This document shows, piece after piece, positions 6,806-55,854 of a DNA stretch of 64,000 bases (position 1 is the stretch's first letter; the number at the start of each line of letters is the position of its first letter). The translations under genes and the position numbers were made by a program. The notes under the pieces were generated by a model that saw only the letters and a program-made list of their open reading frames with translations, did not search any database and was not told the DNA's origin. This DNA is from an uncultured archaeon (GTDB lineage Archaea > Nanobdellota > Nanobdellia > Pacearchaeales > GW2011-AR1): positions 177,108 through 241,107 of the forward strand of contig CABMHR010000001.1 in assembly GCA_902386025.1 (NCBI GenBank). The letters run 5' to 3'.

Positions 6806-6878
6806 GGGGCTATGGGGTAGTCTGGTAGCCTTCGAGGTTTGGGACCTCGCGACCCCGGTTCAAATCCGGGTAGCCCCA
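6806..6878 (+). tRNA. tRNA-Pro (anticodon UGG)
   Basis: Hand-folded cloverleaf. Acceptor GGGGCTA/TAGCCCC, anticodon stem CGAGG/CCTCG, loop TTTGGGA, T-arm CCCGG-TTCAAAT-CCGGG, discriminator A. No encoded CCA. Confidence 0.85.
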
Positions 6879-6957
6879 TTGCACGAGTGCCGTGCAAGAA
6901 ATAAAATGCAACGAGAGCAGGCTTGAGTTCGGTAGCTCAATTTAAGGAAGACAAAAA

Positions 6958-14764: not shown

Positions 14765-17242
14765 TTATGCAACTACAAGTGTAGCAGTTGTAGCAGAAGT
14801 ACCTTTGTATTTCTTTCCAACTGTTGTATCTACAGTTTGTGTTCTTAAGTAAGTAGCAGCATTTACAGTATCAGCAGCTTCATAACCCGCAACGACTAAA
14901 GCAACTTTCCCTGTTGAGTAAGTGCTTGCTAAACTTTGGATCAAGAATTGTCCTGAGCCAATGTCTGTCTTTGTTGTGAAATCGCTTCCACAAGTGCTTC
15001 CTAATAAATTAGCAGCAACAGAGTTAATACAGCTTCCACCAACAACAATCAAGTTCTTTGAACTTACAGAGCTAACTTCAGAGTCTTTTACAAGAACATC
15101 TCCAAGTTGTGTTGCTCCTCCTGTTGTTGAGCTTACAGATATGTCTCCACTATTAATGTATACTAATGGATTTGCAATGCTCTTTGGTATTGAAGCTTCT
15201 ATGCTTACTGGTGAATCTGCAGGGTCTGTGCTGATTATATGTTGTCCGTAAAGTCCAATATACTCTTGTACATTTGAATCATCTGGACTAGTTAACCATT
15301 TGCTTGTTCCTGCTTGAGTGACTTTTGCATCTCCAGAACTGTTTGTAACATTTACATAGAATACTGCTCCTTGGTTAGGAAGAGTGAACTGATCGTCATC
15401 TCTTGTTGTATCATCTATTGTTACATTTAAGCTCCAAGGGTCTGATACACTTGAGGTACCCACCGTATTGGTAGGATCAATTATCTCATTAACAAAGGTA
15501 GCATTTTTATCTGTTATATTAATCAACGTATTGTAATACGTTCTAATATAATTAGATACGCTTGCATTGCTTAAATCAGTAGTTGATTCTTTACTTCCAT
15601 AGTCCCCGCTACTGAATGCAATTAAACAATCATTAGCGCTTGAACAGCTTGAAGCATTTATGAAAGTAAAGTCTGCTCCAGCTTCTTGCAATGTACCATG
15701 TCCCATAGATCCAGCTGCTGTAGTCATAACTACATCTCTATCTACTTGGTTTGAACCAGGGTTTAGAGTAAAGTGGAATACGGGATTAGTATCTGTAGTT
15801 TTATCTGCTCCTTTATATTGAATCACAACTGTTTTAGCATTACTTGTAGGAACCTTAGGATTTCCAGTGTTTAGAATGACATAATCATTCTTTGAAACAT
15901 TTTGGAAAGTTGAAAGCAATACTAAGCTTTTGTCTGCATCAGCTCCACCATAGACTCCTGAAGTATTTGTGTATAATACAGGCAATTCAACTTTATCCCC
16001 ATTGTAGTTTACAAAATCAAGGGTATATTTTTTGTCATTTCCAGAAACTTTAAAGCTAATATTTTCATAACTTTGAGCTTTTAATCCTGCAAATGATATA
16101 TCCCAATTCTGTCCAACTAATACTTCTGGTTTATCCAAATCTGAAGCCTGGCTTAATTTCTTTCCAACTGGAACATATAAGTCATCTTCTGCAGTCATGT
16201 TAATTGCAATTTGGCTGATGGATACATCAGACACATTGCTTGCAGTTATATCAACATGTGCATCGCTTACTGTTTCTCCATTTACAACCATTGCAGAGTT
16301 ATTGTTCAATTCAAGTTTATCTGCTCCTATGTAGAATACAGCATTATTATCTGCTCCAGCAATACCCTGATAAGTTATATCAGTTACAGCTAGATATTTT
16401 CCATTGGCTAATTTTTCAATATCGCCTTTGTCCATCTTAGCTGTTGTTTCAGTTCCACTTGCTGAAGTAATAGTGAACTTTGCTTCAGTAGCACTTGTAA
16501 CTTCTGCACTAACAGTATATTCTCCTATAGTTAATGGTGTTGCACGGGCAGTTCCTGTTAAAGCACCGCTCATTAAAGTCAAATCTACACCTTTTGAAGT
16601 CATATAAGCACTTGTTATAGTGTAAGTTTTTCCCAAAAGAGTTATTTGTTTGTCCTCTATGTCTGATAATTTGTTGTCTGCTGTGTCAATATCAGATCCT
16701 AAAGCAGTACCAAAACTCATAACATACTTTGCAATCTGTTGTCCGCTTGGTATCTTAAAAAACAATCCTAAAGCATCTGTATCTGGGTCTGAAGTGTAGA
16801 TAACTCTACCTGGGTCGGATAAATCAGTTGTTTCAAAATAGAGATACTGCTTGTAAGTAGAATCTCCTTTCTCGTTAGAGAGAGAACCATCTGCTAAAAT
16901 AGCTAAGTCGCCAGAACTAATATATGAAGTAACTTCTGCTATAGATTCATTAATCTCCAATATATCAGAACTTGTTCCAACCTGCCAAGCATCTCCGCCA
17001 GTTACAGTAGTGCTTCCGCTTGTTCCAGTCATATATGATTGCAAGTTTGACTGAATGTTTCCTGCCTGAACTAAATCAAGTGAAGAAACACCAGAACCTG
17101 TACCATAAACAACAGCGACATTTGCAGCTCCTCCAGCAACGAAAGGTGCGGGATAATTTGCAGCTACAGCAGTGCCCATAGTTAATCCTACCATCAATGC
17201 GCTAGCAGCGATTGCCGTTACTTTTTTAAAATTTAATCTCAT
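14765..17242 (-). CDS. S-layer-like major surface protein
   Basis: Sec signal MRLNFKKVTAIAASALMVGLTMGTAVA. 825 aa, Thr/Ser/Gly-rich. There is a strong RBS (GGAGGT) and a long structured 5' leader. Confidence 0.55.
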   Translation of the reverse strand: MRLNFKKVTAIAASALMVGLTMGTAVAANYPAPFVAGGAANVAVVYGTGSGVSSLDLVQAGNIQSNLQSYMTGTSGSTTVTGGDAWQVGTSSDILEINESIAEVTSYISSGDLAILADGSLSNEKGDSTYKQYLYFETTDLSDPGRVIYTSDPDTDALGLFFKIPSGQQIAKYVMSFGTALGSDIDTADNKLSDIEDKQITLLGKTYTITSAYMTSKGVDLTLMSGALTGTARATPLTIGEYTVSAEVTSATEAKFTITSASGTETTAKMDKGDIEKLANGKYLAVTDITYQGIAGADNNAVFYIGADKLELNNNSAMVVNGETVSDAHVDITASNVSDVSISQIAINMTAEDDLYVPVGKKLSQASDLDKPEVLVGQNWDISFAGLKAQSYENISFKVSGNDKKYTLDFVNYNGDKVELPVLYTNTSGVYGGADADKSLVLLSTFQNVSKNDYVILNTGNPKVPTSNAKTVVIQYKGADKTTDTNPVFHFTLNPGSNQVDRDVVMTTAAGSMGHGTLQEAGADFTFINASSCSSANDCLIAFSSGDYGSKESTTDLSNASVSNYIRTYYNTLINITDKNATFVNEIIDPTNTVGTSSVSDPWSLNVTIDDTTRDDDQFTLPNQGAVFYVNVTNSSGDAKVTQAGTSKWLTSPDDSNVQEYIGLYGQHIISTDPADSPVSIEASIPKSIANPLVYINSGDISVSSTTGGATQLGDVLVKDSEVSSVSSKNLIVVGGSCINSVAANLLGSTCGSDFTTKTDIGSGQFLIQSLASTYSTGKVALVVAGYEAADTVNAATYLRTQTVDTTVGKKYKGTSATTATLVVA

Positions 17243-17630
17243 TTTTTTAACCTCCTTTCAACTCTATTTAATATGTTGTCTATGACAACCTCTCCTCTCA
17301 ACCGATGAGATAGGGTAACCCATCCTGTCGAGATGAACATGAACGCCCTATTAGAACACTCAATAACGAGTGTTAAAAGAAAAAATTCATTTTGCTTTAA
17401 AAAACTTGTTGTGATATTTTCACTTACCCTATCAAAACTATGTAGTTTTACTACATTTATTTATAAAGATGGTGATATCACTCTAATATGATTACACTTA
17501 TTGAGGGTTCTGTGAGAAAGATTTATTAACATATATTCTTTTTGCAGAATATATAACTAAATATATCATACTCTCTGATTATATATATCATAGATATATT
17601 ATTAAAAAAAACATATATTGGTAAGAAGGG

Positions 17631-17975
17631 ATGGTAACAAGGGAAATAACAATAAAAGAAGCAAAGGGGGCATTTTCTATATTTAAGAAGCCCTCTAAGG
17701 GGAAGGAAGAATATGATTTCTCTGGGATATCTGCATTGAGGCAGGTGCTGGGCAATGAAAAAGCGAGGATATTAAGCGTCATAAAAAATGACAAGCCGAG
17801 TTCTTTATATGATTTGTCCAAGAAGCTTGGCAGGAATTTCAAGTCTGTTTACGCTGATTCTAAACTGCTTGAAAGATTTGGTTTTATAGAACTGGCTGAA
17901 GAGAAAGTAAATAACCGGACAAGATGCAAGCCAAAGATAGTAACAGATACCATAACAATACAAATTAAGATTTAA
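17631..17975 (+). CDS. Predicted winged-helix transcriptional regulator
   Basis: wHTH-like segment SLYDLSKKLGRNFKSVYADSKLLERFGFIEL. Confidence 0.4.
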   Translation: MVTREITIKEAKGAFSIFKKPSKGKEEYDFSGISALRQVLGNEKARILSVIKNDKPSSLYDLSKKLGRNFKSVYADSKLLERFGFIELAEEKVNNRTRCKPKIVTDTITIQIKI

Positions 17976-18451
17976 CTGTAAAGATTAAGGGAAACCTGAT
18001 AGTCTGTTCCTCCTCTTGTAAAGTCCTGAAATGCCCCCTGATAACTTGCTGTTTTATTCCCGCCTTGGAATTTTATCTTTTCCTGCTCATCTGCTGTAAT
18101 TTTAAATTCATATCCTTTTACTGCACTCTGGGTTCCAACATTCCATCCTTTTGTAACCATATTGCCTAAATTAGATTTTAATACATCACAGCTGTCTCTT
18201 CCATCAATGCATATATCTCCATTCTCGCAGGAAATTATCAATTCCTGCACAGGAAGAAATCCTATCTGGCTGTCGCAGTCTGTTGTATACTGCAGGCTTG
18301 ATTCTATAAAACTTTCAATTTCAGAATCTTGAACAATAGTCTGATCAGGAGTTTTTATCAAAAAACTAAGCAGGATTAGAAGGATTACCCCCACAATTAC
18401 TACAATCACTGCAAATCCAACCATCTCCTCTTGCGCTAATTTATCTCTCAT
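17972..18451 (-). CDS. Type IV pilin-like protein (class III signal peptide)
   Basis: MRDKLA|QEEMVGFAVIVVIVGVILLILL. A basic leader and +1 Gln are followed by a hydrophobic segment. Confidence 0.5.
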   Translation of the reverse strand: MRDKLAQEEMVGFAVIVVIVGVILLILLSFLIKTPDQTIVQDSEIESFIESSLQYTTDCDSQIGFLPVQELIISCENGDICIDGRDSCDVLKSNLGNMVTKGWNVGTQSAVKGYEFKITADEQEKIKFQGGNKTASYQGAFQDFTRGGTDYQVSLNLYS

Positions 18452-19074
18452 TGTGTTTTGTCCTCAGAACTAACCATTAATCTGGCAAGTTCGCATTTAT
18501 CATAAGCTCCTGTCCCGCCTGATTTCTTCCTGCACAGCGAGATAAAACTTGAACTGGAAGGCAGTGTTTTTACATTCTTGTCAAGGATTTTAAGAACCCC
18601 GCAATTTGGATAATTTTCCATATTGCATTCTATATTTCCAGAATCAGGATAAACTTTCCTTATTTCTATTTTTGCAACACCCCAGAAACCAGAAAATTTA
18701 TCTTTATTTTCTGAAAGAATTATAACTTTATCAAAATCAACGCAGTCTGTTCTGCTGCTCCCAAATGCATTTTCGCAGGATAACTCTGGAGAATTTGCAA
18801 GTTTTGATACAAGAAGAGTAGCTTCTTTTTCTGCAAGATTTGTAGCTGTTTTCTGAAGATTCTGCATTATTATGGATAGAAAAAACAATCCGACAAGAAC
18901 AAACAGGAAAGTAACTGCTATAATCATAAAAACCATCTGCTGTATTTTCATCTGAGCCGAGCGATTTCGCGGTATTAAGGCACGTGTCATGCAAGCGAAG
19001 TCGGGAGTAGAGCGATTTCGCGGTATTAAGGCACGTGTCATGCAAGCGAAGTCGGGAGTTTTTTTGTTTACCAT
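18448..19074 (-). CDS. Type IV pilin-like protein with two tandem copies of a 17-aa leader insert
   Basis: MVNKK[TPDFACMTRALIPRNRS]x2 AQM + hydrophobic. Confidence 0.55.
   Translation of the reverse strand: MVNKKTPDFACMTRALIPRNRSTPDFACMTRALIPRNRSAQMKIQQMVFMIIAVTFLFVLVGLFFLSIIMQNLQKTATNLAEKEATLLVSKLANSPELSCENAFGSSRTDCVDFDKVIILSENKDKFSGFWGVAKIEIRKVYPDSGNIECNMENYPNCGVLKILDKNVKTLPSSSSFISLCRKKSGGTGAYDKCELARLMVSSEDKTQ
18958..19059 (-). repeat. Two tandem copies of a 51-nt GC-rich in-frame element in a prepilin leader
   Basis: Sense strand is actcccgacttcgcttgcatgacacgtgccttaataccgcgaaatcgctc(t/g), twice. Confidence 0.85.
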
Positions 19075-20006
19075 AGCAGGCAGTCTCCGGCATTATTTAT
19101 TTCAGTTATAGCATCTGCTTCTGTCTTGACAATTCCCAATTCAGAAGAGCTTGTTAAATCTCCTGCAAGCTGGCTTAATTCATCCAAACTTCCTCCTGCA
19201 TTGTTGTCACATCCTTCTTTCTGGATAAGCATCCCTTTGTCTTTATACAGCAGAGAAATTTCTTCTAATCTAAGCATTAATCTTTTTATCTGGCATTCAT
19301 ATGCATCTTTGTCTGAAAATATTGCAGCATACATCAATGCGCTTGTCCCTTCTCCTGTTTCAGCAAAATACATAATTTTTCCGTCTTTCTCAACAGATTC
19401 AGAAGACAAGTCAACATTTATGTCGCAGTTTTCATTGTTGAAGCATATTCTTATTCCATTCTGGGCGCAGTTGTCTATAAGCAGATTGCTCTGGTTTAAA
19501 TTGAATATTTCCTGGCTTATCTCTTCAGGAGCGTCGACAAAGCAGTAGCTTTTTTTTGAAGAAGTCATGTAAATCAAGTCTGCAATTTTGAATGGGAAAT
19601 CAAAGGGTTTTGAGAAAATGTAAAATGTTTTTCCTTCTGTTTCATTGTCTGAGAAAATATATTTGTTTTCAAAAAAAATGTTCACGTCGGTTTTTACCCA
19701 TTTGTTGAAGCTTTTTTGCTCCAGTTGTATTCCCTGCTTCCCAAAATTCCCCGCACTGTCGCAGATGTTATGAATTCTTGTCTCTGTTGGGATTGTTATG
19801 GAAGTTGTCTGCGCTGTTTCGTAGCTTGTTTCCAGAGGATTTAACAAAGCATCTATTTCCTTTCCTGTCTTAGCGCTTACTGTTTCCTGCCCAGAATTAA
19901 TTAATTTTGAACTGAAATAAATAGCAAGAAAAATTATGACAATTCCCGCAATAAGAGCAAACAGCCAGCCAAAAGAAATTTCAAGCGCCCCTTTTTTTTC
20001 TTTCAT
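19068..20006 (-). CDS. Type IV pilin-like protein
   Basis: MKEKKGALEISFGWLFALIAGIVIIFLAIY. Confidence 0.55.
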   Translation of the reverse strand: MKEKKGALEISFGWLFALIAGIVIIFLAIYFSSKLINSGQETVSAKTGKEIDALLNPLETSYETAQTTSITIPTETRIHNICDSAGNFGKQGIQLEQKSFNKWVKTDVNIFFENKYIFSDNETEGKTFYIFSKPFDFPFKIADLIYMTSSKKSYCFVDAPEEISQEIFNLNQSNLLIDNCAQNGIRICFNNENCDINVDLSSESVEKDGKIMYFAETGEGTSALMYAAIFSDKDAYECQIKRLMLRLEEISLLYKDKGMLIQKEGCDNNAGGSLDELSQLAGDLTSSSELGIVKTEADAITEINNAGDCLLW

Positions 20007-20110
20007 AAATAAAAATACCGAATATAACTTATAAATTTTCCTAATATTTTTTTCTTTCTTATTCTCTTGCCCCTTTCTATCATTGTAGGTTCTTTTTTAA
20101 AAGAACCTCA

Positions 20111-20593
20111 TTATCTTGTAATAGTTACTAATGTCTCCCCGTAATTTTTTACAATATTCATGCTTATTTTTCCCTTGACATTCTGGATGCAGAATGGATT
20201 TTCATCTTTGATTGTTTTTGCAATATCAATATTTTCAATTTTCTTTCCTGCAATTATGCTTTTGGAGGTGAATTTCATATTTTCAAACTCATCATTCTGA
20301 AAACATACAGAACTAATCTTTGTGGGCAGAGAATATTTCACGCTTTGGCTTCCTTCGCTGCTCTTCCACATTTTGTTTACATCTTCCTGAAAATTTTGCG
20401 AGAAGGTTTGTATCTGCACATCCTGCTGCATATTCAAAAATTTTGTTATAGCATAAAATCCAAAGACAAGAAAAACAATTATAAGAATAATGGAAAAAAT
20501 CATTCCGAATGATAAATTCATCTGTGCCGAGCGATTTCGCGGAATTAAGGCACGTGTTATGCAAGCGGGTTCGCGAGTTTTCTTATCCATCAT
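20111..20593 (-). CDS. Type IV pilin-like protein with leader insert
   Basis: MMDKK[TREPACITRALIPRNRS]AQMNLSFGMIFSIILIIVF. Confidence 0.55.
   Translation of the reverse strand: MMDKKTREPACITRALIPRNRSAQMNLSFGMIFSIILIIVFLVFGFYAITKFLNMQQDVQIQTFSQNFQEDVNKMWKSSEGSQSVKYSLPTKISSVCFQNDEFENMKFTSKSIIAGKKIENIDIAKTIKDENPFCIQNVKGKISMNIVKNYGETLVTITR
20528..20578 (-). repeat. 51-nt GC-rich in-frame element copy
   Basis: Sense strand is actcgcgaacccgcttgcataacacgtgccttaattccgcgaaatcgctcg. Confidence 0.85.
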
Positions 20594-20732
20594 TAAAAAT
20601 GCCGAATATAACTTATAAATTTATCGAGACAATCCTTTATTACTATTTTTTATTATCAACATCTTTTGAAGACAATCAATCATACCTGCTCGTAACCTCT
20701 CGCAGATTTTTGTTAAATTTTATACACAGAAG

Positions 20733-21083
20733 TTAAATCCAATAACATCTCGTGGCAACCATAAAAATCTCATGCTGTTTAAATCTTCTTTTTAATGTCT
20801 CTTTATATTCTTTTAATTCCTTTATCTTTGCAACATTGCAGATAGTCATCTTATCTTCTGAATCAATTAAGATAGTATAAACAACTGTTTTATCATTATA
20901 TCTCTTTTTGTTATTTGGATTTATCCAAGAACCAATTATAGGGGTGTTGGTTGTATTTATCCCACCTGCCATTTTTAATAATTCTTCATAAGTATCAAAG
21001 AAAGATTCCTCTGGAATTTTCCCTCCCCCGTCTTCAAGGTTAAAATTAATAGGTAATTGTATATCTACTTTAAAATGAGTCAT
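20733..21083 (-). CDS. Hypothetical protein
   Basis: 116-aa ORF. Confidence 0.3.
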   Translation of the reverse strand: MTHFKVDIQLPINFNLEDGGGKIPEESFFDTYEELLKMAGGINTTNTPIIGSWINPNNKKRYNDKTVVYTILIDSEDKMTICNVAKIKELKEYKETLKRRFKQHEIFMVATRCYWI

Positions 21084-21313
21084 TATTCTTCTTGATTTAT
21101 CGGTAATTCAGTAAAAGAAATATTATTATCACTCAAAATTCTAAGAAATCTTTTTTCTACAATAAACTCGTCCTGTTTGTCTGAGTAAGTATTTCCATTA
21201 GTCATTAACAGATAAAATCCCTTTATTTTATTCTCTCTTGAATGATTAATTTTTATTCTTACATAAATATGTTCATTTTCATTGTTAACACAAGAACAAA
21301 TTTCATCAGGCAT
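21083..21313 (-). CDS. Hypothetical protein
   Basis: 76-aa ORF. Confidence 0.25.
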   Translation of the reverse strand: MPDEICSCVNNENEHIYVRIKINHSRENKIKGFYLLMTNGNTYSDKQDEFIVEKRFLRILSDNNISFTELPINQEE

Positions 21314-21383
21314 ATTTTTTAAACCTCTTTTTTAATATAAAGATATGTATAATAAACTATATATTCTTTTTGGATTTTTCTAA

Positions 21384-24300
21384 TTAGTAAGAACTGACAG
21401 GCCTTGCAATCAAGCTGCATTCAGCAGGAGATGGCTGGTTTCCAAATTCATCCTTGCACTTTATGTAGAATATGCTGTTAATATTCCAGTCTGTTGAATG
21501 AGCTAAATTATCTGCGGTTGTCATCTTTAGCCCGTCTTTAAAGTCATATCCGCAGTTGGTTGTGTCATAAACGCAGTCTGCTTTCTCGTTTGTTGTAATT
21601 TTCAGCTGATTGACGTCGTTGTAAACTCTTGTAACTATGGGGGCAGTTGTATCTGTCTTGACTGTAAATGTTGTTGCTTGTGTCTGGCAGTTTAATCCGC
21701 TGTCACAGCATTTTATTGAATAAGTATAAGTTCCTGAATCCAGCCATAAATCCTGTGAATGCTGATAAGAATCTGTGTTGGCAAATTTGGCGTAAATTGT
21801 TTCTGATGATTCTTTGAAGAAGCAGGCTGCTTCTCCGTTTTGATATCCTGCAGAAGTTACTGCTTCTAACTTAACGTGGACGCTTTGAGTTGAATCTTTT
21901 ATTGTTGTTCCGTCTAAAGGAGCAATGCTGTTAATTACTAAATCTCTTGTTCCGATTAGCTTGTAAACATAAGATTGTGTCATTGCTGTTCTTTCTGATT
22001 CTTTGTCTGTTCCCTGCTTTGAAGGATAGCTCTTGCATCTAAAGTAAAAGTTATTTTCAACTTCATCTCTTATTCCTGTTAATGTAGTTGTGCATTTGTA
22101 GAGCATATTTGCGCTTATTTCTGTGCTTTCCTGTGCGCAAGTCATTGTATTAGTCATTGCATCATAACTCTCGTCGTTGTGGCTCCATTTGCAGTCTGAT
22201 GGCTTGTCTGTATAAACATCAACTGATTTTGAAGTAACTCCTTTTTGTGTTGGCGCTCCGTTGGATGGGTTTGTCAGTTCAACAGAAGGGGCAGTTGTAT
22301 CTGGCTGGCTCTGGACGCAGTATTTGAATACAAATGTTCCGGCAGTTGAAACTCCATTCTTGCTCTGGCATCTTACATAAGTTTCATAATTTCCTCCATT
22401 TTCTATTTGAACTCCCTCGTCGCTTAACTCGCTTGTTCCTGGATGGAATGAAAGGATGCTGTGATTTTCTATGAAATGTCCTTGGCTGATTAATCCGGGA
22501 TTTGTCATACTGTCAAAAGTGCTTTTTCTGACAGTGTCAATTCTGCATTGTCCTGGCTTGTCTAAATTTATTCCGTAAGTTATTTTTTGGAATGGAAGTG
22601 CGCATCCGTCGCTGGTTTCTGTGTTGATTATTTTCACTCCCTTGTCAGATGCAGATGTTGTTGCAGGCTCGTATTTGAATCCTTCCTGCAATGCTCCTTC
22701 CCATGCAGACATTGTAGGAGGTGTGACATCATTTCTATTATTGAAATAACATTTCTCTTCGCTTGTTCCTTCATTCAGCAATTCACAATTCTGCCCCAAG
22801 CTCTCGCATTTGTATTTTGTGCAGGGCAATTGTCCTGTATTGCATTTCTCGCAGTTTGCTCCGCCTGTTGCAGGCTGCCACGAGTTGCAGGTATATTGAA
22901 CTGCTACAACTTCTCTTTCTCTGTGAAATATTACAAAGAGGATAGCAGAAATTCCAAGTCCAATCAATCCTCCTACAAATCCTGTAAATAAGAAAGTAGT
23001 ATCTTTTCCAATAACACCCAATCCAAATAATAATGTTTCAATTGCAGAACCTGCTGCATATCCTATTCCTAATACAATTCCTGCATCACTCCATGCCTGA
23101 GGATCTGGATTTCCAGGGATAGTGCTTATTCCCCATAATCCTGCCCAAAGTCCAACAGCAATAACAGAATTTCCAACTATCGCCCATATTCCTCCGTTGT
23201 TAAATATATTGCTTAAAAAATTTGGTGCTTCATCTTGAGTGTATCCCTTATATCCTGTTCCAGGAGATGCACTATTTGGATTTGTATTCCCTTGTTGTTG
23301 TGAAGTTAAATCAGTTACAGCTGTTTTCGCTTTTCCATACACATCTAAATAACCCCCTGCTAAACTAGCCATATCAACAGCTGATGGGGTGCTGGATGGT
23401 TCTTTTGATGTTTCCTTTTCCCCTATCAAGTCTAATTTATCACAACAAACACCATTTCCATTTAACTCTATAAATCCTGTTCTAACATTACAAGAAGTTC
23501 TAGTAGTCCCATATTTTGCATTTAAATCAACACACTTATTTTTATCTACGCAACTTGCTCCAGAATTGCATTTTTTATTTGCCTCTTCATTATTGTTTGT
23601 TCCAGTTCCAGTGGTTGCTGTTCTTGGATTTATTGTTAAAGTAAAAGATTTTGTATCTGTTCCTTTAATTTTTTGGCTTCCCCCCCCTGCAGAACAATAT
23701 GCTTTTGCAGTTACAGAGAAACTTGTAGAGCCTGCATTTTTTACTCCCCCCAATGAATAAAATTCCCCACTAAATTGATTATAGTCTATATTATGGCCTG
23801 CACTTCCAATAGTGCTTGCTGCGTTTGAAACTTCCCAATGAACTTCGCACCCGCTTAAACTATATATAGACTTTATATTTGTGGTTAATGTAAAAAGAGT
23901 ATCTTTTTGTCCAACAGTTACAGAAGGTGAAGCAGAATTTATAGCAAATGATGTTGATGAAGTTGTTGATGCTTCTGGGTTAATTATTGTTAAAGCAAAA
24001 GTTTTTGGATTTGATACATATAATGGATTATTCCCTTCACTTATTTGTGTTTGAACTTTAAAAGTATATGTTCCTGCTGTTGTTGGTGTCCCAGAAAGAA
24101 TCCCCGTTTCTGTATTAAAAGATAATCCTGGGATTATTAATTGAAAATTCTCTGGAGTCATTATTTTCCATTCATAATAAGCAAGAGAGGGTTTATACTT
24201 TGTTCCATAATTTACACTAAGTTGAAGAGAATATCCTGATTTACCTGCTTCCCATATTAATTGTGAATCTGTTACATCGTTTATGTCTATGGATGAGGCA

Positions 24301-24440
24301 GTAGCACTCACGATTTTGAATTCATTCCCAAGAAGATAAGCGAAAGCAGCGATGCTGACAACTAAGATAAAGATTTCAAATATTGACATTCCTTTTTCTG
24401 CTTTCCTCTTCAGCGAACTTTTGTTTTTTATTTTATCCAT
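21384..24440 (-). CDS. Giant pilin-like surface protein: N-terminal signal/TM, He_PIG-like Ig domain, central multi-TM segment, Cys-rich C-terminal domains
   Basis: KAEKG|MSIFEIFILVVSIAAF. LSGTPTTAGTYTFKV is a He_PIG-like motif. Residues ~420-500 are strongly hydrophobic. There are many Cys residues. Confidence 0.55.
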   Translation of the reverse strand: MDKIKNKSSLKRKAEKGMSIFEIFILVVSIAAFAYLLGNEFKIVSATASSIDINDVTDSQLIWEAGKSGYSLQLSVNYGTKYKPSLAYYEWKIMTPENFQLIIPGLSFNTETGILSGTPTTAGTYTFKVQTQISEGNNPLYVSNPKTFALTIINPEASTTSSTSFAINSASPSVTVGQKDTLFTLTTNIKSIYSLSGCEVHWEVSNAASTIGSAGHNIDYNQFSGEFYSLGGVKNAGSTSFSVTAKAYCSAGGGSQKIKGTDTKSFTLTINPRTATTGTGTNNNEEANKKCNSGASCVDKNKCVDLNAKYGTTRTSCNVRTGFIELNGNGVCCDKLDLIGEKETSKEPSSTPSAVDMASLAGGYLDVYGKAKTAVTDLTSQQQGNTNPNSASPGTGYKGYTQDEAPNFLSNIFNNGGIWAIVGNSVIAVGLWAGLWGISTIPGNPDPQAWSDAGIVLGIGYAAGSAIETLLFGLGVIGKDTTFLFTGFVGGLIGLGISAILFVIFHREREVVAVQYTCNSWQPATGGANCEKCNTGQLPCTKYKCESLGQNCELLNEGTSEEKCYFNNRNDVTPPTMSAWEGALQEGFKYEPATTSASDKGVKIINTETSDGCALPFQKITYGINLDKPGQCRIDTVRKSTFDSMTNPGLISQGHFIENHSILSFHPGTSELSDEGVQIENGGNYETYVRCQSKNGVSTAGTFVFKYCVQSQPDTTAPSVELTNPSNGAPTQKGVTSKSVDVYTDKPSDCKWSHNDESYDAMTNTMTCAQESTEISANMLYKCTTTLTGIRDEVENNFYFRCKSYPSKQGTDKESERTAMTQSYVYKLIGTRDLVINSIAPLDGTTIKDSTQSVHVKLEAVTSAGYQNGEAACFFKESSETIYAKFANTDSYQHSQDLWLDSGTYTYSIKCCDSGLNCQTQATTFTVKTDTTAPIVTRVYNDVNQLKITTNEKADCVYDTTNCGYDFKDGLKMTTADNLAHSTDWNINSIFYIKCKDEFGNQPSPAECSLIARPVSSY

Positions 24441-24452
24441 TTTCCTGTATTT

Positions 24453-26060
24453 TTATGCAGTTCCTGTGCTCAAGTTTGTTTTTGTTATGCTTTCCTGAAC
24501 ATTCCCCTTTGCTCCTGCATAATTTGTTTTGTCTCCGCAGTCTCCTAATTTAGTGCAGATGCTGTTCATCTTGCTTGCCCAGGTTTTTCCTCCGTCGTAA
24601 TTTCCATTTGCGTCATTTACGCAAGAGCAGTTATTTCCATTCCACCATAAATTATTGAGATCAGGCCCTTCGCATACATAGTTGGAGTTTATTATATCCT
24701 TCTTCATCTGAACATAGCATAAAGTATTCGCCAGCTGACAGGAATCTATTGCATCTGTTGTTCCGTCTCTTGCAAATCCTGGCTGGATTTTTGGAACGCA
24801 CAATCCTGCAGAGCTTGAATTGACAAGCTTTCCTTCTTCAACCGAATAAGAATATCCGCTGCTTGCTATCCAAGAGCAGTCTCTTACATTGACATCATTG
24901 CAGTCTTCTTCTTTTGTTTGAAGTATGCAGTCCTGCCAGACATTTGCCCTGCAGTTTGCAGACATAAAAGGGCTGTCTGTTGTTCCTATGTCTGATTCAG
25001 AGCAGACTTTCTGCCTTGTGGAATCGCATTCTTCCATTGTAACTTCTCCATTATAGCACATCATTCTGAAAGAAGTTGAACCAGGAGAATTTTCATTCCC
25101 TGCCTTCGCATCTGTTGCACACCAAGTCTCTCCGTGTTTTGGCTTTCCTGTTCCGCTGTAAATTCCATTGTAGCTGCTGCAGTCAAGGCTTCTGCATAAA
25201 TTATTTCCCACACTCACAGATTCTCCTGCTTTTTTTGTCTGACACATGCTTCCAGAATAATAATCGCAGTCTCCGCAGGTTGCAGAATTTTTATTTCCGG
25301 GATTGCTTGCAGCAGTGCAGTCTGGCTTTTGTATTGTTGTCCAATAAGGAACACTGTCTTTTTTGCTCGCATCATAAATATTTGCAAGATTTCCGCAGGT
25401 ATCTGTAAAATAAACATCATCTCCGCTGCATATTGTGTTTGCACTCTTTGCGCATATTGTTCCAAGTTCAGGCGCACTGCATAAAAATCCCTCGTGGAAA
25501 GATACATCTGACAATGTTTTTGCATTATTCTGGCAGTTTTCTTTTGTTGTCATCTCGCAGGTTTTTGCAGAAGTTTTTGCATCAGTATAAACACACGCCC
25601 CCTTTGCATTTGGGTTCGCGCTTGCGAGGCAGGTTAATTCATCATTTATATTCGCATTCCAGTTAATTGTTAATCCGTATGTTGAAGCCATCCTGTTGCA
25701 CGCAATCTGTGTTACAAATGCAACCTGATCTCCGAGAAGACAGCATCCCAAACTGCACTGGGATAAATCGCTTTCTGATTTATCGCTCCATATTCCTCCG
25801 TTGTTTGTGCAGACGCTTTCTGTTGAAGCAATGCAGGTTCCTTCCTTCTGGTTGATGCAGGTTCCTGTTTTGCAGTATGAAGTTGATTCGCATCCGGCAG
25901 AAATTGCATTATACGACGGATTGCATTCTGATTTTGAACTTTCTTCCTGGCACCATGCTCCAGAATTTGTTTTTTCACAGCAGTAATTTGCAGAACTTGC
26001 AATTCCAATTAAAAAAATTCCTAAAATTAAAAACGAATAAATTATTTTTCCTCTTTTCAT
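24453..26060 (-). CDS. Cys-rich secreted protein
   Basis: Signal MKRGKIIYSFLILGIFLIGIASSA, then a large number of Cys residues. Start trimmed to the internal Met. Confidence 0.5.
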   Translation of the reverse strand: MKRGKIIYSFLILGIFLIGIASSANYCCEKTNSGAWCQEESSKSECNPSYNAISAGCESTSYCKTGTCINQKEGTCIASTESVCTNNGGIWSDKSESDLSQCSLGCCLLGDQVAFVTQIACNRMASTYGLTINWNANINDELTCLASANPNAKGACVYTDAKTSAKTCEMTTKENCQNNAKTLSDVSFHEGFLCSAPELGTICAKSANTICSGDDVYFTDTCGNLANIYDASKKDSVPYWTTIQKPDCTAASNPGNKNSATCGDCDYYSGSMCQTKKAGESVSVGNNLCRSLDCSSYNGIYSGTGKPKHGETWCATDAKAGNENSPGSTSFRMMCYNGEVTMEECDSTRQKVCSESDIGTTDSPFMSANCRANVWQDCILQTKEEDCNDVNVRDCSWIASSGYSYSVEEGKLVNSSSAGLCVPKIQPGFARDGTTDAIDSCQLANTLCYVQMKKDIINSNYVCEGPDLNNLWWNGNNCSCVNDANGNYDGGKTWASKMNSICTKLGDCGDKTNYAGAKGNVQESITKTNLSTGTA

Positions 26061-26061
26061 T

Positions 26062-26850
26062 TTATGATGTTGCATATCCCGCAGCCCATATCTGGCTCTT
26101 TGATGCAAATTCAAATTTATTTCCTGTATTTCTGTCTGTTATTGAATATATTTTCTCTCCGCTGTCTCTCAAATCTTTTTCAACTTTCAAATCGTGGTAA
26201 TACGCCATATAAGTTGTTACTTCTGCATCTCCGTAGGCAACTTCCCACTGCAGTATGCTATTAGCTATTGCAACTAATTCATAAAGATTATTGTTCAGAA
26301 TTACAACAAATGAATCATATTTCTGCGTGTCTCCTTTTGTCAATGTCAGTGAGTAATTGAATGTTGAGACAATTCTCTTCGGAAGAAGTTCAACTGATGT
26401 AGCTCCTGATTTCAAATCAACGCTGTATCCCTGACTTTCATAGCTGGATTTCATCGACGAGAAGCACGAATTAACTTCAGAAGAAATTGCATTTTTTATT
26501 TCTGATTCAATGTGCTGCTTCAGCATTGGCTGCTGGACAACGCAGAAAACTTTGTTTGTTGCCTTGAAATACTGGTTTGTGTAGCATAAAAATTCAACTT
26601 TATTGTTGTCTTTAAGAATAAAATTCTCTGGATTTAAACTTCCCCCCTGCAGCGATATCTTGGTTACTGCGTCGGTGATTCCTTTTTCAATGCAGGTTTG
26701 AATGTAAGACTGCGGAGTTTTTGCCTGTGCTCCGAAAGTTGTTTTAATCTGCGGATAAAAACTATAAATCAAAAAACCTGCAACAACAATTATTATTCCA
26801 ATAATAATAAATATAGTAATCTGCCCCTTTCTGTTCCACCTCTTGTTCAT
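26062..26850 (-). CDS. Archaeal type IV pilin (class III signal peptide)
   Basis: MNKRWNRKG|QITIFIIIGIIIVVAGFLIY, a canonical KG|Q site. Confidence 0.65.
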   Translation of the reverse strand: MNKRWNRKGQITIFIIIGIIIVVAGFLIYSFYPQIKTTFGAQAKTPQSYIQTCIEKGITDAVTKISLQGGSLNPENFILKDNNKVEFLCYTNQYFKATNKVFCVVQQPMLKQHIESEIKNAISSEVNSCFSSMKSSYESQGYSVDLKSGATSVELLPKRIVSTFNYSLTLTKGDTQKYDSFVVILNNNLYELVAIANSILQWEVAYGDAEVTTYMAYYHDLKVEKDLRDSGEKIYSITDRNTGNKFEFASKSQIWAAGYATS

Positions 26851-34340: not shown

Positions 34341-34631
34341 TTATTTTTTGTTATATCTAACATCAAAATCAATATATTCAATTTTGCCTCTTTCTTTTGA
34401 TTTTTTTGCAATCCATATCTTTGAGAAAATTTCTTTTTGTAGATACCACCTACACTTCTCTTTCTCTTCTTTTGAAAGAATACCATTCATTTTAACTTCA
34501 ACTCCAATTACGCTATATAATCCATCATGAATGTGTCTCATTATAATGAAATCAGGAAACCCCGCACCCAAAACAAATAACTTCTTAAAAGGATTATATT
34601 TTCTAGCAATGATTAACTTTCCCTCTTTCAT
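34341..34631 (-). CDS. hjc: Holliday junction resolvase Hjc, C-terminal fragment (PD...EVK)
   Basis: GFPDFII...IGVEVK carries the PD-(D/E)xK core. It lacks the N-terminal helix with the first catalytic Glu. Confidence 0.5.
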   Translation of the reverse strand: MKEGKLIIARKYNPFKKLFVLGAGFPDFIIMRHIHDGLYSVIGVEVKMNGILSKEEKEKCRWYLQKEIFSKIWIAKKSKERGKIEYIDFDVRYNKK

Positions 34632-35296
34632 TTTATAACCTCTAAAATTTTATCTTTACAAAATTCTAAATTTGACTTAATCTCATGTTCCCATAATCTT
34701 AAAATAATATATCCCTTGTTCTGCAACTCTTTGGTTCTAATTTTGTCTATCTCTCTTCCAGAAGGGTAATTGTGATAATAATCTCCATCACATTCTATAA
34801 TTATTTTTTTGTTTATGATAATATCACATTGATATTTGTGTACAATATCTGTAATCGGTTGGTGTTTTATAAAAGGAATATTTAATTCAGTTAATAAATT
34901 TTGGATAATCAACTCAGGTTTAGTATCTTTTTTTAGTATCTTTTGGTAAAGTCTCTTTTCTTTTATTTTAAGGATTGTTTCTTTGGATTTATTAACACCC
35001 GGATTTGTTTTACCTTTGATAAAAGTGTGTCTAAATGGGTTATCTCTTATTCTCTCTTTTGTATCAAGAGAATGTTTATATCCTTTATGATATTGATTAT
35101 TTAAATTATTTTTTATAAGTTTACTCTCTTTAGCCAATTTGCTTAATTTTTCAGATTTAAAATAACAAAATCTGTTACAATAGATTTGGGTTTTTCTTTC
35201 AGTTTTTATTTCTTTCTTGCATGTTGGACAAATTTTTGTATAAATCTTAGCTTTTTCCCATTCTATCTTTTTCTTCCCCTTATTAAATGGAATCAT
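34628..35296 (-). CDS. Free-standing homing-endonuclease-like protein (NUMOD3 motifs + Vsr/DUF559-like nuclease domain)
   Basis: NUMOD3-like HSLDTKERIRDN and GKTNPGVNKSKETILKIK. C-terminal ECDGDYYH...REIDKIRTKELQNKGYIILRLWEHEI is a Vsr-like PD-(D/E)xK domain. Confidence 0.5.
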   Translation of the reverse strand: MIPFNKGKKKIEWEKAKIYTKICPTCKKEIKTERKTQIYCNRFCYFKSEKLSKLAKESKLIKNNLNNQYHKGYKHSLDTKERIRDNPFRHTFIKGKTNPGVNKSKETILKIKEKRLYQKILKKDTKPELIIQNLLTELNIPFIKHQPITDIVHKYQCDIIINKKIIIECDGDYYHNYPSGREIDKIRTKELQNKGYIILRLWEHEIKSNLEFCKDKILEVIK

Positions 35297-41059: not shown

Positions 41060-41995
41060 TTAATTCCTTATTTCCTGCATAACAAACATTCCTTTTGCAA
41101 AAACATTTACTTCGTTAAGAACTTTGAACATTCCGACAAATCTGCTATTTGAAAACCCGCAGACAATTTGATTCTTTTCAGCTTTCACTTTATTTTCCAA
41201 ATCCTTTTCATATACTGGCTGTCCGTGCATTATTCTTTCTACAGGCTCTTCCTTAATTTCCACAACAGGATAAACTTCGCTGATAATTTCAGCAGGAATA
41301 ATAATTTCTCTAATCAGTTTATCATTTCCCTTTTCATATTCCTCAACTGCCTTTTCAAATTTCTCCTTGCTAACCATCTCTTTACTTTTGAAAATTCCTG
41401 CTCGGATTCTTTTTAATCCAGTCATATGCGCCCCTATTTTCATTTCCTCCCCCAAATCATGAATAAGTTTTCTTATGTAAGTTCCGCCTTGGCATTCAAC
41501 CCTGAAATAAACTTCTTTTCCGTCTTTTTTCAGCAGTTCAAATTTTTTTATTTCTCTTTCTCTTTCCTGCCTTTTGACTTTTGAGCGAACAGGGGGAAGC
41601 TGTATAATCGTCCCCATAAATTTTTCTTCTATAACTTTTTTTATTTCCTCAAGAGAAACATCTTCGTGAATTCTCATCACTCCTTCATATTCCTTGTCTT
41701 CTCCTATAAAAAATCCGCTTAATTTTACTGCTCTGTTTAACGCAACAGGCAAAACTCCAGTAACCATCGGATCCAATGTTCCAAAATGGCTTGTTTTCCT
41801 TAATTTCAGTTTTTTTCTCACAAAATCAACAACATCAAAGCTCGTGCAGTCCGAACGACTTTGCGATGATGAAGCCAGTGATGAGTGAGCGGGGTCGAGA
41901 GTTGTAGGTTTGTCAAAATTTATAATTCCAAATTCAAGAAGTTCCTTAATCGATTTTGTTGATTTTATTTTTTCAAGATTTATTTTTGCATCCAT
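41060..41995 (-). CDS. cbf5: H/ACA RNP pseudouridine synthase Cbf5 (TruB family + PUA), with a 19-aa GC-rich in-frame insert
   Basis: FDKP...KTSHFGTLDPMVTG. An extra TLDPAHSSLASSSQSRSDC segment lies between the motifs. Confidence 0.7.
   Translation of the reverse strand: MDAKINLEKIKSTKSIKELLEFGIINFDKPTTLDPAHSSLASSSQSRSDCTSFDVVDFVRKKLKLRKTSHFGTLDPMVTGVLPVALNRAVKLSGFFIGEDKEYEGVMRIHEDVSLEEIKKVIEEKFMGTIIQLPPVRSKVKRQEREREIKKFELLKKDGKEVYFRVECQGGTYIRKLIHDLGEEMKIGAHMTGLKRIRAGIFKSKEMVSKEKFEKAVEEYEKGNDKLIREIIIPAEIISEVYPVVEIKEEPVERIMHGQPVYEKDLENKVKAEKNQIVCGFSNSRFVGMFKVLNEVNVFAKGMFVMQEIRN
41846..41902 (-). repeat. Diverged 57-nt copy of the GC-rich element, inserted in-frame in cbf5
   Basis: Sense strand is actctcgaccccgctcactcatcactggcttcatcatcgcaaagtcgttcggactgc. 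It shares an exact 10-mer and ~70% ungapped identity with the pilin-leader element. Confidence 0.5.
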
Positions 41996-54667: not shown

Positions 54668-55270
54668 TTACTTCGCCTTTATTTTTACATCAAAGAAATC
54701 ACTTGCATAAGCAGTTTCTCCTGCCTTGACTTCTATCTTGAATCTTGCAGTGCATAACGGAGAGCCGACAGGAATGTCAAATAAAACTTTTCTGACTATG
54801 CTGTCCCCGCTTGGGATTGACAAACTATCTTCTGCTTTTCCTAATATAATCCAGCTTTCAGCTTCTTCCTTGCTTATTCCGCAGTTTCCAACATCAGATG
54901 CAGATACAGCATAAGAAAAAGTGCTCTGTGCATTTGCTCCTTCCTGCAGATTCTTAATTCCAAAACCAACTCCGTCAGTTGAAGTCTGCGCTATTTCAAC
55001 AAGTCTTGTTCCGGGATATACTGACATCTTGTTGTCTTCTGAAAATAATTTATTTATTTCATTTCTTAACTGCTGGTCTGTCAAATCAACAACACCTGTT
55101 GCAGATTTTGAAATTTTTTGTATTAAGAATATTCCTCCAATCAAAAGAGTAACAAGAAGAACAATTGTGACAATTGTTCCTATTGACATTTCCATTTGCC
55201 CCGAGCGATTTCGCGGTATTAAGGCACGTGTCATGCAAGCGGGGTCGCGAGCTTTATATTTGTTTTTCAT
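54668..55270 (-). CDS. Type IV pilin-like protein with leader insert
   Basis: MKNKYK[ARDPACMTRALIPRNRS]GQMEMSIGTIVTIVLLVTLLIGG. Confidence 0.55.
   Translation of the reverse strand: MKNKYKARDPACMTRALIPRNRSGQMEMSIGTIVTIVLLVTLLIGGIFLIQKISKSATGVVDLTDQQLRNEINKLFSEDNKMSVYPGTRLVEIAQTSTDGVGFGIKNLQEGANAQSTFSYAVSASDVGNCGISKEEAESWIILGKAEDSLSIPSGDSIVRKVLFDIPVGSPLCTARFKIEVKAGETAYASDFFDVKIKAK
55202..55252 (-). repeat. 51-nt GC-rich in-frame element copy
   Basis: Sense strand is gctcgcgaccccgcttgcatgacacgtgccttaataccgcgaaatcgctcg. Confidence 0.85.
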
Positions 55271-55565: not shown

Positions 55566-55782
55566 ATTTAATTATTGTCTTTTACTTTTATAAATGTTAT
55601 TAATATCAGCCCTGAGCAGTAATTCAAGGGGAAAGTCAAGCGAACAAAACCGCGTAGGTGTTGTCGCATTGGGACCACTGTACTCGAATCCCCACTCGTT
55701 GCATTAATTCTTCTTACCTGCACTCGTGAAAATCCTCGGAGTCGAACAGTTCGACAATCAATAAATATAATCTACGATTATA

Positions 55783-55854
55783 TGGGACCACTGGGAGTCG
55801 AACCCAGGACACCTACGTCTTCAGCGTAGTGCTCTCCCGCTGAGCTATGGTCCC
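55783..55854 (-). tRNA. tRNA-Phe (anticodon GAA)
   Basis: Hand-folded cloverleaf: GGGACCA-TA-GCTC-AGCGGGA-GAGC-A-CTACG-CTGAAGA-CGTAG-GTGTC-CTGGG-TTCGACT-CCCAG-TGGTCCC-A. Confidence 0.85.

Follow-up and report, generated by a model that had tools for sequence, protein, structure and literature searches.

What is a near-identical 51-nt segment doing in the leaders of three genes that are otherwise unrelated in sequence? The question is raised by a 64,000-nt stretch of DNA from an uncultured archaeon of the Pacearchaeales (assembly GCA_902386025.1, contig CABMHR010000001.1, positions 177,108 to 241,107 of the forward strand; the whole stretch is called the window below), in which three pilin-like genes carry the segment shortly behind their start codons. 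We find that it belongs to a family of small hairpin repeats that is widespread among DPANN archaea and has apparently not been described before. In our reading, to which we assign a probability of roughly 70%, it is a selfish, probably mobile hairpin repeat of AT-rich DPANN archaea (Pacearchaeota, Woesearchaeota and 'Nanoarchaeota'), similar in kind to the Rickettsia palindromic elements (RPEs), and it is translated and then removed together with the leader. The argument is carried by the following observations: the copies form one family, they share a hairpin specific to one strand, they are inserted exactly and in frame with respect to empty sites, they occur in hosts other than pilin-like genes, and they turn over between relatives.

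Near-identical copies in the leaders of three pilin-like genes

A search of the window with the 34-nt core GCATGACACGTGCCTTAATACCGCGAAATCGCTC returned four matches, all on the minus strand—exact at 18959-18992, 19010-19043 and 55203-55236, and with two mismatches at 20529-20562—and none of 100 shuffled controls contained a match. The search thereby located four 51-nt units and bore out the original prediction that three pilin-like genes share the segment, that it stands in tandem in the first of them, and that the other two copies lie at 20528..20578 and 55202..55252:

19009..19059, minus strand: 51-nt element, tandem copy 1, in the leader of the pilin-like open reading frame (ORF) 18448..19074; encodes TPDFACMTRALIPRNRS; the G-U hairpin strand is the plus strand.
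18958..19008, minus strand: 51-nt element, tandem copy 2, in the leader of ORF 18448..19074, head to tail with copy 1 and abutting AQMKIQQ.
20528..20578, minus strand: 51-nt element in the leader of the pilin-like ORF 20111..20593.
55202..55252, minus strand: 51-nt element in the leader of the pilin-like ORF 54668..55270.

All four copies are in frame and sit between a short basic start and an [A/G]-Q-M motif followed by a long hydrophobic stretch. The translated leaders read MVNKK-TPDFACMTRALIPRNRS-TPDFACMTRALIPRNRS-AQMKIQQ for ORF 18448..19074, MMDKK-TREPACITRALIPRNRS-AQMNLSF for ORF 20111..20593 and MKNKYK-ARDPACMTRALIPRNRS-GQMEMS for ORF 54668..55270, in agreement with the starts and cleavage contexts read earlier. 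Outside the 51 nt, the three host genes do not align with one another. The copies stand out as GC islands, as had been noted, with a G+C content of 55-60% against 28-40% in the window, and the alternate-frame ORFs ascribed to the repeats (18737..19093 and 20313..20564) are indeed present. Once the insert is removed, the leaders display the class III (prepilin-type) pattern as applied here—a short basic N-terminus, G or A at position -1 and a hydrophobic stretch of about 20 residues—in the form MVNKK-A-QMKIQQMVFMIIAVTFLFVLV and similar sequences, and the orthologs are alike in this respect. A Pfam scan of the five pilin-like ORFs of the two loci gave no family match, so the label 'pilin-like' is taken from the class III signal-peptide pattern alone.

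Insertion, loss and decay among orthologs

Homologs of gene 3, as we call ORF 54668..55270, number in the hundreds in Pacearchaeota, Woesearchaeota and 'Nanoarchaeota' (comparison loci are given L-numbers throughout). The majority are 182-188 residues long and start with MKNKNAQMEMS, MKNKNGQMEMS or a similar sequence, and about 20 have 15-21 extra residues exactly at the insert position, e.g., TRDPACMTLTLTPQNRS and TRDFARSSLSLIPRNRS. It had been proposed that excision of 51 nt would yield a canonical leader and that the segment is a true insertion at one leader position; both proposals hold, the orthologs devoid of the segment having just such a leader and lacking precisely the 17 residues. 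Filled sites differ from empty ones by an exact addition of 51 nt, without a duplicated flank of 3 nt or more.

The insert comes and goes among close relatives. In a neighbour-joining tree built from 120 mature ortholog sequences and scored for a long or short leader, at least 18 changes of state are required, and pairs of orthologs that are 92% identical in the mature part differ in the presence of the insert. Versions that have decayed towards AT-rich sequence are still in frame in other orthologs (e.g., RTHKNSLYSFFPKNRR in L007), and in such relics K or R again precedes the cleavage G/A, where the intact element encodes S, as would be expected from selection on a translated and processed leader. 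The tandem copies of ORF 18448..19074 are identical to one another, and the two copies of its L165 ortholog differ; the near-identity of the leader copies in the window, set against the divergence between genomes, together with the identical tandem pair, points to recent spread or homogenisation within the genome.

Further cases were met alongside this comparison. In a gene 3 ortholog at L203 (300-340), only the last 9 nt of the element are kept (AATCGCTCG, giving MKKW-NRS-GAMEMS), which looks like the footprint of an imprecise deletion. Between two element-bearing genes of the window lies another pilin-like gene, 19068..20006 (minus strand), the leader of which is empty (MKEKKGALEISFGW...); its orthologs are filled at the same leader position, with one copy in L095 and two in tandem in L088. 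Three seemingly N-truncated homologs, considered as cases of out-of-frame copies, turned out to be called from an internal Met, with normal leaders upstream. An alternative start at the ATG just 3' of the element, as on a leaderless transcript with TTAATA about 24 nt upstream, was likewise rejected, because orthologs without the insert keep their MKNK..[AG]Q leader upstream and no copy closes the frame that runs through it.

A hairpin that pairs on one strand

Members of the family are about 45-75 nt long and consist of two conserved GC-rich arms around a variable loop. The arms, GAGCGAYTTCGYG ... [quoted passage not shown] In a covariance-model alignment of 26 copies—fitted to the model, and thus somewhat favouring structure—97.3% of the cells of the stem pair and compensatory changes are seen in 8 of its 9 pairs, a level of pairing reached by none of 500 shuffles and approached by no slid register. 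Among the paired cells, G-U makes up about 24% and A-C is nearly absent, which indicates that pairing is maintained or selected on one strand only. In every pilin, cbf5 and yhbY copy, the strand that pairs with the help of G-U lies antisense to the host gene; on the mRNA strand, the stem has 1-3 C.A mismatches and folds no better than shuffled sequence.

The original prediction had further proposed that nucleotides, rather than a peptide, are conserved. Over 29 distinct 51-mers, the mean variability at codon positions 1, 2 and 3 is 0.65, 0.47 and 0.54 bits, without any excess at third positions; conservation follows the arms, which places it at the nucleotide level. Read along the hairpin strand, 91% of copies are preceded by a C, and the final GAG is followed by T plus either A or T, a terminal pair that tandem arrays assign to the unit itself. 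A K-turn or box C/D motif in the arms was rejected by inspection, the tandem G.A pairs that it requires being absent.

A widespread family with unrelated hosts

The element had been described from three pilin leaders. The leader copies are real, but members at 41853-41903, 55681-55737 and 6879-6939 had been missed, and we count six to seven in the window: the four near-identical leader copies, a copy in cbf5, a copy adjacent to tRNA-Phe and a decayed remnant adjacent to tRNA-Pro. An exact 25-nt core found no match in the genome_contigs and metagenome_contigs collections (which do not include the window's own genome), the loops of the relatives being different, but searches based on the arms brought out a large family that extends to housekeeping genes and tRNA surroundings. 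A covariance model built from 18 copies and run on the window and 80 related genome loci yielded 26 matches with E <= 1, of which 21 fell below 1e-5, and an arms-only pattern (GAGCGAYTTCGYGR N15-45 GCGRRKTCGSGAG) retrieved at least 131 distinct elements, with cores of 42-71 nt, from at least 120 metagenome contigs. Many of the hits derive from groundwater sites at Hainich. No Rfam family matched the element at gathering or E-value thresholds, and no viral contig of IMG/VR did so, whereby a viral origin was rejected. The GC-rich flanks in L043 were considered as rRNA and rejected as such, Rfam giving RNase P RNA and tRNA-Phe only.

One copy in the window lies inside a gene that is not pilin-like:

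41853..41903, minus strand: diverged 51-nt copy, in frame and in host orientation in the Cbf5/TruB gene 41060..41995; located by the arms search, 49.5 bits with the covariance model.

It splits motif I of the protein (FDKPTT-LDPAHSSLASSSQSRSD-CTSFDVV). The host gene matches Pfam TruB_N, and the alignment of the window's Cbf5 to solved Cbf5 structures starts directly after the insert. At this site, 5 of 120 Cbf5 orthologs have an insert, one of them nearly intact (ARDPACTTHPLTPQNRS), and the remainder have none. Cbf5 orthologs also contain inserts of 14-23 residues at eight other positions, each lineage-specific.

Other genes repeat this pattern. L003 (Pacearchaeota) has a copy in the orthologous pilin leader as well as two tandem copies in a YhbY/CRM-like gene (ISVLKS-[17]-[17]-AGHDKEK), and the orthologous YhbY of L007, L005 and L158 has a single copy at a different site and in a different frame (EKL-NSRPRLHNTGLTSAKSL-GKKY); judged against empty orthologs, YhbY has therefore been entered at two sites and in two reading frames. 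A copy in PheT is read on the opposite strand, as ERFRGGKDSDKQAGSRV. Besides Cbf5 and YhbY, the mid-gene hosts, with copies in both orientations, are PheT, PheRS alpha, MGMT (just before PCHRV), the diphthine synthase Dph5, an agmatinase-like enzyme, a RadA-like ATPase, a Sun-family methyltransferase, Elp3 and a PP-loop ATPase; apart from Cbf5, hosts are named from conserved motifs, not from database matches. Most of the coding 51-mers are found in class III leaders, those of many different pilin-like families, always immediately before the G/A, singly or in tandem (x2 or x3); filled leaders occur in L087, L088, L095, L101, L117, L125, L136, L165 and L198. A subfamily found mostly in coding sequence has a G-rich direct repeat on both sides (GGGTGGGC ... 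T[AT]GGGTGGGA; GGGTGGG), as in L126, L157, L134, L173, L186, L140, L146, L064 and others, and these flanks may represent a longer version of the element or a target duplication.

Within genes, the reading frame is kept. Among the 26 copies with the 49-nt core (the 51-nt unit), 22 lie in open frames of at least 90 codons and in host orientation; other length classes are mostly non-coding, and non-coding copies are of arbitrary length. All of the approximately ten mid-gene insertions have the same frame on both sides and are stop-free, the chance expectation for frame keeping alone being one in three for each case. With 51 nt, i.e., 17 codons that are open in the frames used, the element can reside in coding sequence and be translated. 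From the preserved frame and the retained in-frame relics we infer that translation probably does pass through the element, which would then be removed with the leader.

Could the segment, instead, be part of a long leader with a function at the peptide level, conserved among paralogs in the ordinary way? The motif [TA]RD.A...[LI]PRNRS, which recurs in the orthologs of other genomes, fits such a view. However, third codon positions lack the excess variability that goes with it, YhbY uses another frame of the same DNA and PheT its other strand, copies occur in non-coding DNA, and the flanks of the three window genes are unrelated. The original prediction had itself considered this explanation; given that other genomic copies exist and that variability is not raised at third positions, we regard it as extremely improbable.

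Association with tRNA 3' ends

The remaining members in the window are both located downstream of tRNA genes:

55681..55737, minus strand: 57-nt family member with a longer loop, inverted with respect to the coding copies, inside a duplicated tRNA-Phe 3' fragment; 45.5 bits with the covariance model.
55738..55755, minus strand: palindrome GTCGAAC-T-GTTCGAC followed by TCC, a copy of the tRNA-Phe T-loop after its reverse complement; 5' flank of the 57-nt copy.
55670..55680, minus strand: CAGTGGTCCCA, which repeats the final 11 nt of tRNA-Phe (55783..55854); 3' flank of the 57-nt copy.
6879..6939, plus strand: decayed module directly after tRNA-Pro (6806..6878), with a loop and 3' arm like those of the tRNA-Phe-adjacent copy and the 5' arm missing.

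The module, 45 nt downstream of tRNA-Phe, thus has the composition GTCGAAC-T-GTTCGACTCC, 57-nt family member, CAGTGGTCCCA. The helix that flanks the family member has a 3-nt bulge and is not a canonical bulge-helix-bulge (BHB) motif. As the copy is inverted, its G-U strand is the minus strand, the one that also carries tRNA-Phe, and the G-U stem can therefore form in a read-through transcript of the tRNA. The same architecture behind tRNA-Phe is present in L003, L007, L009, L013, L016, L043 and L067, each module matching its own tRNA end, and in metagenome contigs modules, at times arranged in arrays, also occur 3' of tRNA-Leu, Ala, Gln, Arg and Asn. For 16 of 59 tRNA-Phe genes in genome loci and 14 of 37 tRNAs in metagenome loci, the tRNA's own final 11 nt are found again within 300 nt downstream, against 0 of 109 in the upstream control. 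In L082 (863-1040), L185 (2574-2879) and L043 (1369-1720), a unit of tRNA 3' end, trailer, T-loop copy and hairpin is repeated two to four times behind a single tRNA. The decayed module at 6879..6939, to which the covariance model gave no match, ends in CGGTAGCTCA, resembling the 3' end of tRNA-Pro.

The tRNA arrangement could reflect site-specific integration, or a duplication rescuing an invaded tRNA gene, or a function in the processing of the tRNA transcript. A joint reading, which we hold to be possible though doubtful, would make this an undescribed archaeal element that is at home in the tRNA gene and targets a T-arm-like sequence (...TTCGAnTCC^). It would be carried with the duplicated tRNA 3' end behind intact tRNAs, with its single-strand fold selected in the tRNA-sense orientation, and would reach coding regions by way of an intermediate, RNA or single-stranded DNA, through a mechanism that differs from those of known transposases; in at least some contexts, e.g., the tRNA-Ile of L133 described below, it would have to be removed from the transcript.

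Another view is that the hairpin is a functional cis element—a site through which pilin genes are regulated together or tagged for processing, be it an antisense RNA hairpin, DNA bound by a protein or a structure at the mRNA 5' end—whose identity is kept by selection. The copy downstream of tRNA-Phe is kept in eight genomes, many pilin-like genes have the element at the same post-start position with several copies in one operon, conservation extends to synonymous sites, and pairing is strand-specific. Yet the presence of the element flips between orthologs that are 92% identical in the mature part, internal copies occur in unrelated housekeeping genes, where they lie mid-gene in both orientations, copies decay, and no Rfam family matches. 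We therefore consider a cis-acting role unlikely.

The duplicated tRNA ends that flank the tRNA-adjacent copies are, moreover, reminiscent of att sites. Taken with the near-identity of the dispersed window copies, and with a tandem pair in gene 18448..19074 that is identical where that of the L165 ortholog is not (pointing to within-genome homogenisation), they would suit a recombination substrate, with the repeats as sites of site-specific or homologous recombination by which pilin genes have their 5' ends shuffled or converted, in the style of a shufflon or of antigenic variation. However, the pilin copies of the window are all direct repeats, such that recombination between them would delete 1.5-35 kb of essential DNA and not invert it; no recombinase was found nearby among the 18 window ORFs scanned with Pfam, and single-copy housekeeping genes carry copies as well. 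This explanation appears very unlikely.

An unlikely alternative: splicing or other RNA-level excision

Does the segment leave the transcript before translation? As one of its two options, the original prediction had named an intron, and in this case the element would be an archaeal intron (with a BHB or relaxed motif) or a self-removing RNA, spliced from the pilin, cbf5 and yhbY mRNAs so that the canonical proteins are restored. A structured hairpin kept at the nucleotide level, relatives in tRNA T-arm contexts and a Cbf5 copy that splits conserved motif I are all compatible with this option, and archaeal cbf5 genes are a known case of mRNA splicing (PMC2738675). Furthermore, one family member (L133, 1468-1526) interrupts, on the opposite strand, the T-arm of an otherwise complete tRNA-Ile(GAU) gene that ARAGORN calls only after removal of the element; its junctions form no clear BHB, and the tRNA is either a pseudogene or one from whose transcript the copy must leave.

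The evidence on the other side is more extensive. The sense RNAs of 8 coding copies were scanned for BHB motifs (a 4-bp helix and two 3-nt bulges, or, under relaxed criteria, three of four central pairs and outer helices of 2 bp) that would excise exactly the length of the insert, and no motif recurred across these copies and excised 51 nt. RNA folding, put forward earlier as a check, hence yielded nothing that places the junctions in one copy after another. The exon flanks, an A-run and GCN, are unable to pair, and pairing resides on the antisense strand, the mRNA strand having the C.A mismatches described above. Coding copies are all multiples of three and stop-free, whereas non-coding ones are not, and decay leaves copies in frame, where they would still be translated. 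A tRNA gene is interrupted by just 1 of 158 elements, the tRNA-Ile of L133. Finally, the crenarchaeal cbf5 intron measures 16-44 nt and lies within the codon of the catalytic Asp (PMC2738675), but the window insert, of 51 nt, separates DKPTT from CTSFDVV some 25 residues upstream of GTLDP—which is not the crenarchaeal intron site. With no BHB, universal frame preservation, a structure on the wrong strand and decay in frame, splicing is distinctly unlikely.

A probable selfish element in prepilin-like leaders

The other option of the original prediction—a small mobile or recombinogenic element that survives where its open frame is tolerated—is supported by the spread of the family, its turnover and its frame keeping. 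In the mechanism that we favour, the 51-nt subfamily would accumulate in class III signal peptides, at the point where the basic start meets the G/A cleavage residue, and there the insert would merely lengthen the part removed by prepilin peptidase and supply ...PRNRS just before the cut; the 17-codon subfamily would thrive in prepilin leaders because the leader is cleaved off. Turnover would comprise gain and loss between close relatives, homogenisation or re-insertion within a genome, tandem duplication and AT-rich decay. Mobility may proceed through a single-stranded DNA or RNA intermediate whose fold is that of the G-U/G-T strand and which enters 3' of a C, leaving no target duplication; a hairpin limited to one strand and the missing target duplication suggest such an intermediate.

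Several points weigh against this interpretation. The 18 ORFs of the window scanned with Pfam, a minority of its ORFs, include no transposase, integrase or other mobilising enzyme, and among the same 18 no autonomous relative sharing the ends was found. A comparison of filled and empty sites disclosed no target-site duplication, and the weak flank preference (C at -1 in 91% of copies) does not account for the repeated use of the exact leader site. In filled leaders, the cleavage G/A is preceded by S and not by the usual K/R, although this objection is softened by natural uninserted orthologs in which S, N and T also occur at this position. Both the translation of the lengthened leader and its cleavage are steps that we infer. 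In L133, a copy interrupts a tRNA-Ile gene that is complete in other respects. In addition, the strand-specific G-U stem and the conserved copy amid duplicated tRNA 3' ends suggest that there is more to the element, at the RNA level or in function, than selfish DNA. A composite transposon was considered in L145 and rejected, since the gene between its two inverted copies is read, from its S1-like sequence, as aIF2-alpha and not as a transposase.

The genomic surroundings of the copies can be summarised briefly. The element-bearing pilin-like genes lie within a minus-strand cluster (14765..26850) alongside large surface proteins, with a match to S_layer_C in 14765..17242 and to He_PIG in 21384..24440; the scanned ORFs yielded no recognisable pilus ATPase or platform protein. 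An ORF at 34628..35296 (minus strand) has a DUF559 / REase_MTES_1575 endonuclease-like domain and no apparent tie to the repeats. The window also holds an archaeal RNase P RNA and the 3' end of an archaeal 23S rRNA.

The finding bears on annotation as well as on evolution. Gene callers and pilin predictors will misjudge these leaders, and 17-residue inserts in conserved enzymes such as Cbf5, MGMT and PheRS could pass for lineage-specific features. The family also provides a natural experiment on the tolerance of proteins to insertions and on the origin of peptide segments, with the cleaved prepilin leader as a safe harbour. What intrigues most is how the family is tied to duplicated tRNA 3' ends; this tie, together with the strand-specific hairpin, points to a mobilisation route that is now testable.

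Comparison with known systems

Among known systems, BHB introns, including that of crenarchaeal cbf5, share with the element a short structured insert, conserved ends, a variable interior and the cbf5 and tRNA contexts; they differ in that the element lacks a BHB at its junctions, occupies another cbf5 site, keeps the frame universally and has an antisense structure in its leader copies. The GC clusters and 'byp' elements of yeast mitochondria are small GC-rich hairpins of about 50 nt that invade the coding regions of AT-rich genomes. Unlike byp elements or T4 gene 60, however, the element has junctions (AAA|ACT...TCG|GCN) without matching take-off and landing codons and without a stop after the take-off site, and translational bypassing is unnecessary since the elements are open and in frame.

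The ends of IS200/IS605-type elements, as well as the repetitive extragenic palindromes (REPs) and bacterial interspersed mosaic elements (BIMEs) associated with REP-associated tyrosine transposases (RAYTs), are characterised by a short, GC-rich, imperfect hairpin, recognition of one strand, the absence of target duplication and a short specific insertion sequence, and REPs are extragenic. We liken the element to these systems; it differs from them in that no conserved GTAG-like guide tetranucleotide was found and that no Y1/HUH transposase gene appeared among the 18 scanned ORFs. Judged from GC skew, the hairpin strand of the pilin copies would lie on the leading-strand template, opposite to the rule for IS608.

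A search of the literature on DPANN repeats, archaeal in-frame palindromic elements and pilin-leader insertions yielded no description of the element. In a census of MITEs, a Woesearchaeal genome was among the archaeal genomes densest in such elements (PMC11602168). The closest parallel is offered by RPEs, which, according to the summary of Ogata et al. (2000) in PMC10969869, are in-frame insertions in many unrelated genes. Like the element, they are repeated palindromes in unrelated protein-coding genes of an AT-rich, reduced genome; they are in frame, add a peptide at permissive positions, are not known to have an associated transposase and decay in place. Sequence similarity is not expected: RPEs are bacterial and about 100-150 nt long, whereas the element is archaeal and, at 51 nt, three times shorter, and is set apart by its GC-richness, its single strand-specific (G-U) stem, its hot spot in prepilin leaders and its association with duplicated tRNA 3' ends. 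Provided that no earlier description exists, the family would extend selfish DNA within protein-coding genes, as known in Rickettsia, to small AT-rich archaeal genomes.

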